From Candidatus Parcubacteria bacterium (GTDB lineage: Bacteria > Patescibacteriota > Minisyncoccia > Phycocordibacterales > UBA918): a stretch of DNA of 64,000 nt. Where the stretch lies: contig JAKFXN010000002.1 of assembly GCA_021731405.1 (NCBI GenBank), positions 3,151-67,150 on the forward strand. The letters run 5' to 3'. The notes under the pieces are model-generated. The model saw nothing but the letters and a program-made list of their open reading frames with translations. It ran no database searches and was not told the DNA's origin. Positions 16,910-23,820 of this stretch are shown here, piece after piece. Position numbers and translations under genes: made by a program. The stretch's first letter is position 1; each line of letters opens with the position of its first letter.

Positions 16910-17680
16910 ATGTTTTCACTCATTCCAATAGCTCACGCGGCTGAAGAAGCCGGCATTCATGTCGCTTTGAAGCCATATATTGTAGGCCACTTCTTTGGTG
17001 TACCCATTACTGCTACCCTCATCACTACTTGGCTCACCATGGCCTTTCTCATCACACTTTTCTTCTTTATAAGTCGAAAGCCATCTCTTATTCCTAAAAA
17101 AGCGCAAAGTATTGCTGAGATGGTTGTTGGTGGAGTATATGACTATATGAGTGATGTGCTCGAGAGTCGCAAGATGGCCCTCACATATTTCCCAATTGTG
17201 ATGACCATCTTCATTTTTGTGCTCGCTCTCAACTGGATAGGACTTCTACCAGGAGTTACCGCTATCGGTCTCAATCATGACGGACACTTCACACCACTCT
17301 TATATCCAGCTGCTACTGATCTCAATATTACTATCGCATTTGCGATTATTGCGTTTCTCACCATTGAGATAGCTGGGGTAGTGGCACTTGGTACCTTCAA
17401 GTATATTGGAAAGTTTATCAACTTCCATTCACCACTTGCGTTTATCATTGGCCTCATTGAACTTATTTCGGAAATGGCACGACTCATCTCGTTTTCATTC
17501 CGACTTTTCGGAAATATCTTTGCAGGGAAGACGCTCTTGGTGGTGATTATGTTCTTTGTCCCATACATCGTCCCTGTGCCGCTGTATGCCTTTGAACTCT
17601 TTGTTGGATTTATTCAGGCATTTATTTTTGCCATCCTGACATTGTTCTTCATCAAGATTGCCGTGGCGGAACCGCATTAG
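16910..17680 (+). CDS. atpB: F0F1 ATP synthase subunit a
   Basis: Polytopic membrane protein with the conserved C-terminal LISFSFRLFGNIFAG Arg-containing helix. Confidence 0.9.
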   Translation: MFSLIPIAHAAEEAGIHVALKPYIVGHFFGVPITATLITTWLTMAFLITLFFFISRKPSLIPKKAQSIAEMVVGGVYDYMSDVLESRKMALTYFPIVMTIFIFVLALNWIGLLPGVTAIGLNHDGHFTPLLYPAATDLNITIAFAIIAFLTIEIAGVVALGTFKYIGKFINFHSPLAFIIGLIELISEMARLISFSFRLFGNIFAGKTLLVVIMFFVPYIVPVPLYAFELFVGFIQAFIFAILTLFFIKIAVAEPH

Positions 17681-17760
17681 TGGGTAATCACGAGTCCCGT
17701 AAATAATTGGGCGTGACTCGTACTTGTCCATTAATCATTATTAAAAATTAAAGTAATCAT

Positions 17761-18024
17761 ATGACAGAATTTGAAGTTGCAATGCAAGTTGCACAACTAA
17801 ACGCCGACTCTATGAAAGCAGTTGCTATGGCACTGGCTGCAGGAGTAGGTGTGCTTGGTCCAGGTATCGGTATCGGTATGCTCGTTGCGCGTGCACTTGA
17901 AGCTATCGGACGAAACCCAGAAGCAGCCGGAAAGATCCAAGCTACAATGTTCATCGGTATCGCTTTCGTTGAAGCTTTGGCCATCTTTGCTCTAGTAGTA
18001 GCTTTCGTAATCAAGTTCGCTTAA
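17761..18024 (+). CDS. atpE: F0F1 ATP synthase subunit c
   Basis: [23 protein letters not shown], the glycine-rich hairpin with the RNP loop. 87 aa. Confidence 0.9.
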
Positions 18025-18209
18025 ATTCTTTTCTGGCTTACGCCATCTGCTTTGTCGCAGTACAGAAAATTTTTATCACCGTACGCTTGTACGGCTCCCA
18101 AAATTTTCTTTCTGCTCCGCGCATCTGGTGCAATCCAAAAAAGAATTACCTAGAAGTGAACAAAATCAGAAGTAACTCTCTTTATTAACCACAAACTCTA
18201 GCAAAACAT

Positions 18210-18656
18210 ATGGATGAAATCATAAATGCCTTTGGTATCGACGGACGTCTCATCATCATTCAGGTGGTGAACTTCGGTATCTTGATGGTGGCTTTGGGAT
18301 ATTTTCTCTACAAGCCTATTCTTCGTATTCTTAAAGAGCGCGAAGATAAAATCACTCAAGGACTTAAGGATGCTGAAGATGCTGCCAAGGCAAAAGAAGA
18401 GGCTGGTGTTGAAAAACAAACCATTCTCACAGGTGCACATATGGAAGCTGGGGAAGTGGCTAAGCGCGCCAAAGTTGCCGCTGATAGTCAGGCTTCAGAG
18501 ATAGTAGCTGGAGCGCAAGAAAAAGCAGCAGCGGTCTTGTCTGATGCTGAAGTAAAACGTGAACAAATCAAAGCACAAGCACTTAAAGAGAGTGAAAAAG
18601 AAATTGCTTCTCTCGCTGTTTTGGCCGCAGAGAAAGTACTTCGCGAGCAAGCATAG
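18210..18656 (+). CDS. atpF: F0F1 ATP synthase subunit b
   Basis: One N-terminal TM helix followed by a long charged coiled coil. Position in the operon. Confidence 0.8.
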   Translation: MDEIINAFGIDGRLIIIQVVNFGILMVALGYFLYKPILRILKEREDKITQGLKDAEDAAKAKEEAGVEKQTILTGAHMEAGEVAKRAKVAADSQASEIVAGAQEKAAAVLSDAEVKREQIKAQALKESEKEIASLAVLAAEKVLREQA

Positions 18657-18670
18657 CTTTTTGTCTTCTT

Positions 18671-19051
18671 ATGAAACAAGCGTATATCACAGCCTTAACC
18701 GAAGCTCTCCTCAATACAAAAGATATTGACGGAGCGCTTTCAAGTACACATGCTCTTCTCATTAAGAAAGGACACGTGCGACTTTGGCCATCAGTGCTCA
18801 AAGGAGTGGTTGCCGCGCTTGAGAAAAAGGAAGTAGATGACACCCCGCGCGTGATTGTAGCTAAAGAATCAGCTAAGAGTAGTGAAGCCCTTCAAAAGGC
18901 TTTAGCGGCACTTGCTGTTACAAGCAAAACAGAAAAAGTTGAGATTGATAGTTCGCTCATCGGCGGATTTGTTGTTCAGTACAAGGATAAGATGGTTGAT
19001 GGTAGCTACAAGCGAGCCCTCATCGATCTGTACCGAAAAGTCACCAAATAA
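18671..19051 (+). CDS. atpH: F0F1 ATP synthase subunit delta (short form, 126 aa)
   Basis: C-terminal [29 protein letters not shown] matches the OSCP/delta C-terminal domain. Operon position between b and alpha. Confidence 0.7.
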
Positions 19052-19089
19052 TTATTCATTCACCACAGTTTACTAATTCATTATTTATT

Positions 19090-21955: not shown

Positions 21956-21960
21956 TACTT

Positions 21961-21993
21961 AGTGATAAGTGAGTCATTGATTCATTTATCACT
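21961..21993 (+). promoter_or_regulatory. 12-bp stem hairpin inside the atp operon
   Basis: AGTGATAAGTGA-gtcattgat-TCATTTATCACT, with one G.U pair. Lies between the inserted ORF and atpD. Confidence 0.4.
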
Positions 21994-22040
21994 CGGTAGT
22001 ACCGAGTTTCAAACACAATTATTAAAAAAACAAATTTATT

Positions 22041-23408
22041 ATGAAAAAAGGAACAATCACCCAAATTATCGGTCCAGTGGTAGACGTACACTTCGAGGAA
22101 GGAGTGCCCCCACTTCTCAATGCTCTTACAGTAAAGAAGAGCGATGGCACTACTATCACGCTTGAAGTAGCGCAGCACGTTGGTCTTGACCGCGTGCGCG
22201 CTATTGCAATGCAGGACACGCAAGGTCTTACTCGAGGCATGGAAGTGGTTGATACTGAAATGGGAATTTCAGTACCGGTAGGACAGAAATCTTTGGGACG
22301 ATTGTTCAATGTGCTTGGAGACACTCTTGATGGGTTGGGTGAAATCAAAGACGCGACTCGTCGTGCGATTCACCAAGAAGCTCCTGCGTTCACAGAACAG
22401 TCTACGAAGACTGAAGTGTTTGAAACTGGTATCAAGTCTGTAGACTTGCTCGCGCCATTCATTAAGGGAGGTAAGGTAGGTCTCTTCGGCGGAGCGGGAG
22501 TAGGAAAGACGGTGCTCATCCAAGAGCTCATCCACAACGTAGCTTCAGAACACGGCGGGTACTCAGTGTTTGCTGGAGTAGGCGAGCGTGTGCGTGAAGG
22601 AAACGACCTCTATCACGAAATGAAAGACTCAGGCGTGCTTGATAAGACTGCGCTTGTGTTCGGTCAGATGAACGAAGTGCCAGGAGCACGTGCGCGAGTA
22701 GGGCTTTCTGGTCTTACCATGGCCGAAGCCCTTCGTGATGAAGGAGGTAAGGACGTTCTCTTCTTTATGGACAACGTATTTCGATTTACGCAGGCTGGAC
22801 AAGAAGTGTCTTCACTCCTTGGACGTGTGTCTTCAGCGGTAGGGTACCAACCTACTCTTGCTGAGGAAATGGGTAAGATGCAGGAACGTATTACTTCAAC
22901 TAAAAAAGGTTCTATTACCTCTATTCAAGCGGTGTACGTGCCAGCCGACGACCTTACTGACCCAGCTCCAGCAACTACCTTCTCTCACCTCGACTCTACG
23001 GTATCTCTTTCTCGTCAGCTCGCATCACTTGGTATTTACCCAGCGATTGACCCACTTGAAAGTAACTCTTCTGCCCTCGACCCAATGATTGTGGGTGAAG
23101 AACACTACCGTGTTGCACAGGGTGTAAAGCAGACACTACAACGATACAAGGATCTTCAAGACATCATTGCGATTCTTGGTATTGAAGAATTGTCTGAAGA
23201 AGACAAGCAGACGGTGTATCGTGCTCGAAAAATTCAACGTTTCATGTCTCAACCATTCTCAGTAGCAGAAGTGTTTACTGGTGCTCCAGGAAAGTATGTA
23301 ACTCTCGCTGACACTATTCGTGGCTTTGGTGAGATTCTTGATGGAAAGCATGATGACAAGAATGAATCTGCATTTTACATGAAAGGCAGCATTGATGAGG
23401 TAAATTAA
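22041..23408 (+). CDS. atpD: F0F1 ATP synthase subunit beta
   Basis: P-loop [16 protein letters not shown]-like region IEELSEEDK. 455 aa. Confidence 0.95.
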
Positions 23409-23424
23409 CAGCATCTACTTTGTT

Positions 23425-23486
23425 GCGGGGTGAAAAATATCACTCACTGTACGCTAGAGTACACCTCGCAATATTTTTCACCCCGC
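23425..23486 (+). promoter_or_regulatory. perfect 16-bp inverted repeat between atpD and atpC
   Basis: GCGGGGTGAAAAATAT ... (30-nt loop) ... ATATTTTTCACCCCGC, in the 160-nt atpD-atpC gap. Confidence 0.45.
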
Positions 23487-23568
23487 GCCGCGTATCTGAT
23501 GTCAATTTATCTCATCAAACTCGACGATTGCAAGATAGAGTAAAAACCTTAGTTCTAAGATATAAAAC

Positions 23569-23820
23569 ATGGCCGAATTAAAAACACTACAACTAAATAT
23601 CGCTCGAGTAGATGGCCCAGTCTTTGCTGGGGAAGTTATCTCTGTGACCGTGCCTGGAAGTGAAGGGGAAATGACGCTCTTAGCCGACCATACACCACTG
23701 GTGTCTGCACTTCGTGCAGGTACTATCACAGCAAGGTTGACTGATGGTACTTCACAAGAATTTGCGGTCACAGCCGGTACTCTTGAAGTAAGTCACAACA
23801 CGGTTACGATTTTACTGTAG
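23569..23820 (+). CDS. atpC: F0F1 ATP synthase subunit epsilon, N-terminal beta-sandwich domain only (83 aa)
   Basis: VPGSEGEMTLLADHTPLVSALRAGTI matches the epsilon beta-sandwich. The C-terminal helical hairpin is absent. Confidence 0.65.
   Translation: MAELKTLQLNIARVDGPVFAGEVISVTVPGSEGEMTLLADHTPLVSALRAGTITARLTDGTSQEFAVTAGTLEVSHNTVTILL

Follow-up and report, generated by a model that had tools for sequence, protein, structure and literature searches.

The question raised by this locus is how the operon of an essential enzyme has come to combine shortened subunits, an unfamiliar membrane protein gene and long inverted repeats between its genes, and which of these features belong to the enzyme. 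The operon lies at positions 16910-23820 of a 64,000-nucleotide stretch of contig JAKFXN010000002.1 (Candidatus Parcubacteria bacterium, assembly GCA_021731405.1), which we call the window. It is the single operon for an F1Fo ATP synthase in a Kaiserbacteria-like bacterium of the Patescibacteria (candidate phyla radiation, CPR). Nine open reading frames (ORFs) follow one another on the plus strand in the order atpB-E-F-H-A-G-ORF121-atpD-atpC. Pfam names eight of them, and the subunits that mark an F-type operon (a, c, b, delta, alpha, gamma, beta and epsilon) each scored above the Pfam gathering score. A preliminary description, made from the letters alone, had drawn attention to the short delta and epsilon subunits, the inserted ORF and the inverted repeats, and we located all of its items. 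The answer that we favour, with moderate confidence, is that a reduced F1Fo enzyme typical of its clade is encoded here together with an orphan gene, ORF121, that is cargo, and that selected hairpins bracket atpE and atpD as determinants of mRNA processing or stability.

We compared the window with loci from related genomes and metagenome contigs, numbered L001, L002 and so on. The nearest relatives of its gamma subunit (atpG) come from Candidatus Kaiserbacteria and other metagenome-assembled genomes of Patescibacteria. Gamma identity to the window is 86% for L001 and L002, and it falls to about 50% within Paceibacteria-type genomes.

The first step is to ask whether the short stalk subunits are real. 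Epsilon (atpC, 23569-23820, plus strand) has 83 amino acids and PF02823 is its sole match; against full-length epsilon chains its alignment covers residues 4-80, and it stops at profile position 77-80, approximately, of models that are 130-139 positions long. It consists of the beta-sandwich only, as had been described, and the C-terminal two-helix domain of a two-domain regulatory epsilon (about 130-150 amino acids) is absent. Epsilon is 82-90 amino acids long in 25 related loci, whereas it has 137-150 amino acids in 36 loci from Saccharibacteria, Verrucomicrobia, Chloroflexi and others. Delta (atpH, 18671-19051, plus strand) has 126 amino acids and is indeed truncated. It belongs to the OSCP family (PF00213, 45.2 bits against a cut-off of 22.3), and only profile positions 54-169 of 172 are matched, among them the C-terminal domain, which binds b. 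It aligns to residues 77-181 of the Paracoccus delta (5dn6_H), and NCBIfam profiles were matched from about position 67. In every delta model only the C-terminal two thirds were matched, the usual N-terminus being short by about 55-65 residues, and the complete six-helix N-terminal domain (profile positions 1-53), which clamps the N-termini of alpha, is missing. A longer ORF is impossible: the atpF stop is at 18656 and the delta ORF is already maximal. Delta has 120-131 amino acids in nearly all relatives where it was found, and its homologues in a database of 5.8 billion proteins formed 30 clusters, all of 125-131 amino acids. The preliminary description had allowed that a frameshift or a sequencing error might explain the short subunits. 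We rejected this explanation, and assembly error with it, because the same lengths recur across about 25 independent genomes and the 30 clusters. To judge from these recurring lengths, the short delta and epsilon are lineage traits of the clade and not frameshifts.

An AlphaFold2 model of delta, built from 27 sequences, has three N-terminal helices followed by an alpha/beta C-terminal domain, and its best structural matches were OSCP and delta chains. The enzyme would thus have reduced stalk subunits typical of its clade: an epsilon made up only of the beta-sandwich that binds gamma and the c-ring, and a delta made up of the C-terminal domain and about three N-terminal helices. The N-terminal domain of epsilon suffices for rotor coupling, as epsilon truncations in E. 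coli have demonstrated. Alpha (atpA, 19090-20661, plus strand, 523 amino acids, PF00006/PF00306/PF02874) retains its N-terminal helix. It also has an insertion of about 14 residues in the crown of its N-terminal beta-barrel (residues 53-72, approximately) compared with most solved alphas; the crown insertion of the Chloroflexus alpha is shorter. This insertion may be related to the reduced delta. A whole CPR clade has an F-type ATPase cut down in both its peripheral-stalk cap (delta) and its rotor regulator (epsilon), and this is relevant to the way in which half a delta N-terminal domain can anchor the stator to alpha3beta3.

The loss of the epsilon C-terminal domain had been taken to imply the loss of a brake on ATP hydrolysis. 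One part of this stands: in an epsilon without the C-terminal helices, regulation of ATP hydrolysis through those helices is not possible, and it is plausible that the enzyme has no such brake. The inference is a reasonable one, but it is limited by the fact that the role of the domain differs among species (PMC6692558, PMC9317440, PMC5990651). Deletion of the domain in B. subtilis lowers ATPase activity (PMC6692558), and truncation in Paracoccus has little effect (PMC9317440). It has already been speculated that CPR ATP synthases perhaps run as ATP-driven pumps or ATPases (PMC8080830). The reduced subunits bear on this question of whether CPR ATP synthases make or burn ATP; any running direction assigned to the window enzyme is presumptive.

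Short epsilons as such are already known. There are curated models for them (NCBIfam NF009983/PRK13449, an 88-position profile), and C-terminal truncation is common in alpha-proteobacteria (PMC9317440); these proteins likewise consist of the beta-sandwich only or have a shortened C-terminus. The window epsilon differs in that its truncation is paired with a short delta across the clade. It also scores below the cut-offs of the specific short-epsilon models and so represents a separate lineage of short epsilons. Our literature searches found no account of a short delta, nor of a short epsilon or delta in Parcubacteria.

The second step concerns ORF121 (21590-21955, plus strand), a gene for an orphan small membrane protein with about three transmembrane (TM) segments. 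As had been reported, a 121-amino-acid ORF with three hydrophobic segments lies between atpG and atpD; it starts 5 nt past the atpG stop, and its TAG stop sits in the base of a hairpin, H3, that is described below. The preliminary description went on to suggest a lineage-specific Fo accessory subunit. ORF121 has neither the family match nor the positional conservation expected of AtpI or another known Fo accessory protein. It belongs to no family in Pfam or NCBIfam. A word-indexed search of 5.8 billion clustered proteins and an exhaustive phmmer search of 1.84 billion representative proteins each returned only ORF121 itself, and tblastn and blastn gave nothing in the relatives. In the closest relatives the gene is absent or replaced. 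The same description had said that a non-conserved ORF would count against its proposal, and the comparison of operon layouts gave just this result. Thus, the idea of an Fo accessory subunit is unsupported because ORF121 is not conserved. An identical ORF121 is present on an independent Logan contig (assembly of run SRR10388054), its codon-position composition is like that of atpB (T at position 2, 0.46 compared with 0.48), and its frame is the best of six. A low codon score, given below, makes the evidence mixed; ORF121 is probably a real gene, either young or foreign, and its expression is presumed. On the comparative evidence it lies outside the conserved machine: it is an orphan, specific to the strain, that encodes a small membrane protein.

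What surrounds ORF121 is consistent with its being cargo. Across loci L001-L033 the gap between atpG and atpD ranges from 1 to 1844 nt, and the slot between the atpG stop and H3 turns over rapidly in the clade, where different genomes hold unrelated cargo. The window, L001 and L002 have beta subunits that are 95% identical, yet three different slot contents, and the spacer of the window is conserved at the DNA level only in its last 90 nt, which correspond to H3. No ORF occupies the slot in L001, L003, L014 and L015. TM ORFs are found there in L002 (75 amino acids, two TM segments), L005 and L008 (107 amino acids), L009 (two ORFs), L016 (64 amino acids) and L017 (97 amino acids). Elsewhere the slot holds a soluble protein common to L004 and L007 (109-111 amino acids), a nucleoside-deoxyribosyltransferase-like protein (L006), a NUDIX protein (L023), a 23S-rRNA-IVP protein (L027) or HepT with Ham1 (L024).

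It could be argued that ORF121 and the other junction TM ORFs are one fast-diverging but equivalent Fo assembly or accessory factor, as small TM proteins diverge quickly. Seven genomes do have a same-strand ORF of 64-121 amino acids with 2-3 TM segments in the slot, mostly 1-13 nt past atpG, and the codon-position composition of ORF121 resembles that of a real membrane gene. However, an all-against-all BLAST of the small TM ORFs gave no significant pairs, and they have no detectable similarity to anything else. The four genomes without a slot ORF, the clearly unrelated soluble proteins in others, and the three slot contents behind nearly identical beta subunits are all difficult to reconcile with a common factor, and hydrophobic ORFs arise readily in T-rich spacers. 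We give this explanation very little credence.

Insertions are not confined to this slot. In relatives the atpA-atpG junction holds NUDIX and other ORFs, and the atpD-atpC junction holds HicA/HicB-like genes, an ORF the size of an aldo-keto reductase and TM ORFs. Over the three junctions (A-G, G-D and D-C) the inserts are of toxin-antitoxin and housekeeping types and include HicA with a UPF0150/HicB-like protein, HepT, Ham1, NUDIX (twice), the nucleoside-deoxyribosyltransferase-like protein, 23S-rRNA-IVP and a 353-amino-acid ORF. Inserted genes were located at 8810-9242 in L007, 7209-8591 in L024, 1263-1670 and 2586-2981 in L006, 6911-7318 in L023, 6942-7298 in L027 and 8380-9441 in L033. In streamlined genomes, then, the spacers of an essential operon serve as landing sites for orphan and toxin-antitoxin genes, and not every operon-embedded ORF should be taken for a subunit.

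The third step concerns the hairpins. Folding gave four of them, H1 at 17676-17735, two copies of H2 at 18024-18147 and 23392-23518, and H3 at 21952-22002, with z scores from -3.75 to -7.9, and all four folded better than any of the dinucleotide shuffles. The hairpins at 18024-18147 (atpE-atpF) and 17676-17735 (atpB-atpE) are absent from the preliminary description. Three of the ten long inverted repeats in the window fall in the 7-kb operon. The internal inverted repeats of the preliminary description are real, and they are also conserved, as three hairpin families with covariation. As judged from this conservation, the inverted repeats are selected structures. A search of the window with Rfam 15, at the gathering score and at E<=5, gave no match to any hairpin and found only tRNA and chance-level sub-threshold matches elsewhere. 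The operon therefore yields three covariation-supported hairpin motifs that are not in Rfam.

The two H2 hairpins are copies of one element, and they are the only H2 copies in the window. Copy 1 is a 124-nt palindrome on the plus strand (18024-18147, core 18040-18131) that starts at the atpE stop codon (dG -41.9, z -6.65; 87 bits with R1, the H2 covariance model). Copy 2 is a 127-nt palindrome on the same strand (23392-23518, core 23408-23502; dG -54.3, z -7.9; 82 bits with R1). A perfect 16-bp inverted repeat had been recorded in the atpD-atpC gap, 23425-23440 against 23471-23486; it is the core of copy 2, whose outer stem takes in the last 5 codons of atpD and the stop. The conserved motifs of H2 are CTGCTTYGTTG, then TCAMYGTAC-loop-GTAC..CTC, then CGCCKCGCATCT, and the intervening stems are variable. 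Among 17 copies from 11 genomes, 17 of the 21 consensus pairs showed compensatory changes. R1 gave 22 strong matches in 42 sources, all of them in atp spacers: atpE-atpF, atpD-atpC and, once, atpB-atpE, with three on the minus strand (L004, L005). Other atp loci, amounting to 399 kb and mostly from Verrucomicrobia and Chloroflexi, had no H2, and a few Saccharibacteria and Patescibacteria loci were also negative. Even the two closest genomes differ by compensatory changes. One of these, in the comparison of the window with L002, replaces G-C by A-T, and the 5' partner of the pair is a synonymous position in the fourth-from-last codon of atpD. The base of this H2 copy, which includes the atpD stop, is thus selected for pairing.

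H1 and H3 lie in the leaders of atpE and atpD. H1 (17676-17735, plus strand; dG -22.4, z -3.75) is conserved in the 5' leader of atpE, and in 12 relatives 10 of its 16 pairs showed compensatory changes. The Rfam ATPC RNA motif (RF01067; Weinberg et al. 2007, PMC1950547) is likewise a conserved RNA of an ATP synthase operon, and it lies between the genes for a and c, the very position of H1. Only the location is common to the two: the ATPC motif is a three-stem junction limited to cyanobacteria (PMC1950547), whereas H1 is a single hairpin. Identity with this motif was rejected, there being no Rfam match at the gathering score or at E<=5. H3 (21952-22022, plus strand; dG -26.3 kcal/mol, z -7.7) is conserved in the 5' leader of atpD and consists of a main hairpin of 22 bp (21952-22002) and a small 3' stem-loop, CUCGG-UAGUA-CCGAG, at 21992-22006. 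The 12-bp stem previously placed at 21961-21993 is real, contains one G-U pair and forms the core of this longer hairpin. The base of H3 is conserved from GUAGUAC to CUCGGUAGUAC, its core sequence is CTCGGTNNTACCGAG, and 14 of its 23 pairs showed compensatory changes. The small stem covaries as well (CUCGG/CCGAG compared with CUCAG/CUGAG in L004, L005 and L017) and is followed by UUU; the 3' arm CUCGG has two possible pairing partners, the 5' arm and the CCGAG that lies downstream. The H3 covariance model, R2, gave matches only in atpG-atpD spacers.

Mismatches differ between the families. G-U exceeded A-C by 23 to 2 in H1 and by 29 to 6 in H3, whereas in H2 the counts were 3 to 7 and 21 to 23. 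The strong G-U bias in H1 and H3 suggests that the leaders of atpE and atpD carry RNA hairpins folded from the sense strand. In a tree of alpha and gamma, H2 and H3 were concentrated in one clade with scattered losses, and sister clades had compact spacers. This distribution fits an ancient origin followed by losses.

Could the internal hairpins be terminators or attenuators? They would then split the operon into atpBE, atpFHAG-orf, atpD and atpC, or damp downstream transcription, and the small 3' stem-loop of H3 would be the terminator of an attenuator. The alternative pairings of the CUCGG arm and the covarying small stem with its UUU would suit such a device, and GC-rich relatives of H2 on other contigs are flanked by A5 and T5 runs and lie at gene ends. 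However, no U-tract follows any of the four hairpins. The sequence 3' of the stems is A-rich or mixed, and the G+C-rich stem with an immediate U-tract that characterizes an intrinsic terminator was not found in H1, H2 or H3. The terminator scan reported none of them, yet it found the canonical terminator that ends the operon, an 11-bp stem with a T-run at 23845-23872 on the plus strand, 25 nt past atpC. There are no promoter-like sites on the plus strand past the hairpins to restart atpF, atpD or atpC, and the essential subunits are required together. Because the hairpins have no U-tracts while a canonical terminator follows atpC, it is very unlikely that they are terminators or attenuators; the operon copies of H2 in particular should be read through. 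The canonical terminators of this genome are also seen at 37923-37967 and 41217-41281 of the window, where long hairpins with an A-run 5' and a T-run 3' resemble bidirectional terminators. The latter abuts a tRNA-Asn gene (41272-41344, minus strand).

Our preferred reading is that the hairpins act on the mRNA after it is made. By analogy with known palindromes in operons, they probably define or stabilise the mRNA segments for the high-copy c and beta subunits. REPs (repetitive extragenic palindromic sequences) stabilise upstream mRNA in operons such as malEFG. In our model, the primary transcript would run from about 16780, starting at a promoter near 16750, to about 23872 in the terminator at 23845-23872. 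The four structured elements would bracket atpE and atpD, the genes of the two highest-copy subunits encoded here. After processing by RNases, H1 and H3 would be left as structured 5' ends or caps, and H2 would be a barrier to 3' exonucleases right at the stop codons. In consequence, the segments for c, which is present in about 10-15 copies per enzyme, and for beta, with 3 copies, would live longer than the b, delta and epsilon segments. The same logic would apply as in the differential stability that REPs mediate within operons.

Several observations weigh against the combined reading of reduced enzyme, cargo gene and stabilising hairpins. Alpha is likewise present in 3 copies, yet no hairpins bracket its gene, which leaves the argument from stoichiometry incomplete. 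In several relatives H2 or H3 has been lost and nothing visible has taken its place; the hairpins are therefore dispensable. H2 has no bias of G-U over A-C, and in L004 and L005 it is found in either orientation; a selfish or DNA-level palindrome explains this no less well than a dedicated RNA would. The codon score of ORF121, 0.05, is lower than that of any of the 31 training genes and is attained by 10% of spurious ORFs. Last, the model of the short delta is of moderate confidence only (pLDDT 69).

The question of what H2 is becomes sharper when it is followed beyond the operon. We scanned a strict three-block H2 pattern over a metagenome collection and found the family on at least 120 contigs. 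Among the matches listed, 118 of 121 were not near atp genes, and this rules out the idea of an atp-specific RNA that the cmsearch on the 42 sources had at first prompted. Most of the listed matches were on soil contigs of 65-75% GC, with near-constant sequence, and AT-rich CPR-like contigs also occurred; the family spans 37% to 77% GC. In 55 further matches the structure was kept, with 91% of cells paired, 15 of the 21 pairs showing double changes and none of 500 shuffles reaching the observed scores. In 55 of the 121 listed matches H2 starts 5-45 nt (mostly 12-25) past the stop of a same-strand upstream gene, and these genes are unrelated: DnaB, L11, RpoA, UDG, GDH, an ABC ATPase and subunit c. 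Extra copies occur at about 1 per 75 kb and some are tandem; L097, L142, L159, L162 and L177 are multi-copy contigs.

The GC-rich soil variant (L081-L200; for example L122 1308-1440, L099 and L135) is about 130-150 nt long and has A5 and T5 runs. It has conserved outer arms, CTAGCAGGCTGCTGAAAAAGGCCCAT and GGACCTTTTTGAGCAGCCTGC, so that the hairpin is flanked by an A-run and a T-run, an arrangement like that of bidirectional terminators. A further partial outer arm often follows 3' of the element, and L097 and L142 have tandem copies. The outer arms of the CPR copies have no conserved sequence and take in part of the atpD coding region. A CsrA-like GGA loop was considered and set aside, since it is seen in some GC-rich copies only and is not conserved in the CPR copies. 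Rfam gave no match to the GC-rich copies on metagenome loci, no H2 was found in plasmid and viral collections, and literature searches with H2 sequence strings returned nothing relevant.

These data bring forward an alternative, in which H2 and perhaps also H3 would be mobile palindromes, selfish or neutral, of the REP/REPIN, ERIC (enterobacterial repetitive intergenic consensus) or MITE (miniature inverted-repeat transposable element) type that landed in the atp spacers with no effect on expression. As an imperfect intergenic palindrome of about 100-130 nt that is multi-copy, occurs in both orientations and keeps its structure, H2 has the features of a REP/REPIN/ERIC-like element. The REP/BIME, ERIC and REPIN elements of proteobacteria are its closest analogues: they too are imperfect palindromes of about 100-130 nt in transcribed spacers and after stop codons, found in either orientation and in several copies per genome, with a stem kept by compensatory changes. 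The scatter of H2 behind unrelated genes on many contigs, the several or tandem copies on some of them, the two orientations in L004 and L005, the strand-neutral mismatches and the patchy presence in the clade would all be expected of a mobile palindrome. The internal loops are conserved and asymmetric, like single-strand hairpins recognised by HUH or tyrosine enzymes. A MITE would have terminal inverted repeats with a target-site duplication; the GC-rich copies have conserved inverted outer arms, which carry TAG and TGA in two frames, at which upstream ORFs terminate inside the element.

Other observations do not fit a selfish element. Only two copies are present in 64 kb, and they occupy the same two junctions in up to 12 genomes whose gamma identity is about 50-65%. 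Pairing is kept by compensatory changes even between the closest relatives, including within the atpD coding sequence. No consistent target-site duplication was seen, there are no copies in plasmid or viral collections, and no transposase turned up, although most loci are short and no model-based search was made. The same limits apply to the finding that no RAYT turned up beside H2, and no GTAG-type REP head was seen by eye. H2 also differs from REP and ERIC in that its centre is conserved and its ends are variable, in its low copy density (about 1 per 30-75 kb), and in core motifs common to CPR genomes of about 37-50% GC and soil contigs of about 70% GC, a far broader range. The REP/REPIN and ERIC families do not usually have a centre that is conserved over genomes so unlike one another. 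We consider the selfish palindrome an unlikely but credible explanation.

A more ambitious joint reading is that H2 is an uncatalogued, phylum-spanning hairpin element with a dedicated trans-acting partner, fixed at the atpE and atpD stops of Kaiserbacteria-like CPR bacteria, where it tunes stoichiometry, and that H3 is in addition a site of cassette capture. The partner may be a protein that binds or processes RNA, or else a recombinase acting on single-strand DNA. If this were true, H3 would make the atpG-atpD junction a hot spot of gene acquisition inside an essential operon. We think it quite unlikely that this whole reading holds. Whatever its role, the phylum-spanning H2 family is the most interesting lead from this locus, and it is a candidate for experiments on how uncultured bacteria process their mRNA or on the mobile palindromes that they carry.

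Cassette capture by H3 can also be considered by itself. H3 would then be a recombination site, like the attC sites of integrons, that makes the atpG-atpD junction a gene-capture hot spot. H3 copies do travel with cargo: the order is atpG-H3-atpD in L001, atpG-H3-ORF75-H3-atpD in L002 and atpG-ORF105-H3-ORF115-H3-atpD in L009. The duplications are at 6925-7361 in L002 and 7226-7708 in L009; the L009 copies are near-identical and the L002 copies share only the palindromic core CTCGGTGNTACCGNG. This core bounds the L002 insert on both sides, and the sequence past the second core is that past the single core of L001. The stop codon of cargo ORFs is the TAG within GTAGTAC, the base of H3, in the window and in L004, L007, L009, L016 and L017. 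Cargo ORFs that come with H3 copies and stop in the H3 base would suit a cassette-like capture, and toxin-antitoxin-type genes are among the cargo of relatives. Integron cassette arrays are likewise tandem ORF-hairpin units in which unrelated small cargo ORFs end within the hairpin, and attC sites, like H3, are imperfect palindromes with conserved bases only near their ends. On the other hand, attC-type boxes were found by inspection in neither H2 nor H3, and the R''/R' boxes (RYYYAAC, GTTRRRY) were not seen in the H3 alignment. H3 also differs from integrons in its strong G-U bias, which is typical of RNA structure, and in that the array lies inside an essential operon. No integrase or recombinase turned up, although no dedicated search was made. 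Most genomes carry cargo 5' of a single H3, so that no recombination at H3 is required, and H3 does not accompany the inserts at the atpA-atpG and atpD-atpC junctions. Taken together, these data make capture by H3 highly improbable.

The remaining operon genes are all on the plus strand. They are atpB (16910-17680; Fo subunit a, 256 amino acids, PF00119, E 4e-43), atpE (17761-18024; subunit c, 87 amino acids, PF00137, E 3e-16), atpF (18210-18656; subunit b, 148 amino acids, PF00430 and TIGR01144), atpG (20676-21584; gamma, 302 amino acids, PF00231, E 9e-80) and atpD (22041-23408; beta, 455 amino acids, PF00006 and PF02874). Subunit c carries the carboxylate motif FVEALA, which we take to be of the proton type. 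About 130 nt 5' of atpB there is a candidate sigma-70-like promoter, TTGAAA-17-TATAAT (16750-16778, plus strand), which matches the consensus at 11 of 12 positions; the assignment is a consensus match only. No Shine-Dalgarno-like motif was found 5' of any of the nine genes (start regions 16880-23570), and their leaders are A/U-rich, which suggests Shine-Dalgarno-independent initiation in this organism.

The window operon shares its eight core genes and their order with the atpIBEFHAGDC operon of the E. coli and Bacillus type, including one b and one c gene. It differs in having no atpI, a delta without about 55-65 N-terminal residues, an epsilon without the two C-terminal helices, an orphan ORF between atpG and atpD, long conserved hairpins at four junctions and no Shine-Dalgarno motifs. 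The absence of atpI had been pointed out before, and we too found no atpI-like ORF on the plus strand 5' of the operon. Two hydrophobic ORFs lie upstream and divergent from the operon, at 15384-15698 (104 amino acids) and 16434-16733 (99 amino acids), both on the minus strand. They have no Pfam match and a low codon score, and they are not conserved in L002 or other relatives. As analogues of atpI or atpZ they were rejected, having neither a family match nor conservation.

Further upstream, a DEAD-box helicase gene (13789-15162, minus strand) encodes an N-terminal extension of about 90 residues that is rich in Arg, Gly and Ser and of low complexity. Downstream, the operon adjoins a gene for an ApbE flavin transferase (23843-24724, minus strand). 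This is followed by a gene for a 159-amino-acid protein with a weak FMN_bind match (24724-25203, minus strand) and one for a 518-amino-acid protein (25303-26859, plus strand) in which an RnfD/NqrB-like membrane domain is fused to FAD- and NAD-binding (FNR/NqrF-like) domains. The three genes are also found beside the atp operon in L001 and L003, and the 518-amino-acid gene is there in L004, L005 and L008 as well. From their domains, these neighbours could form a minimal Nqr/Rnf-like, NAD(P)H-driven ion pump that feeds the ATP synthase (compare PMC8080830).

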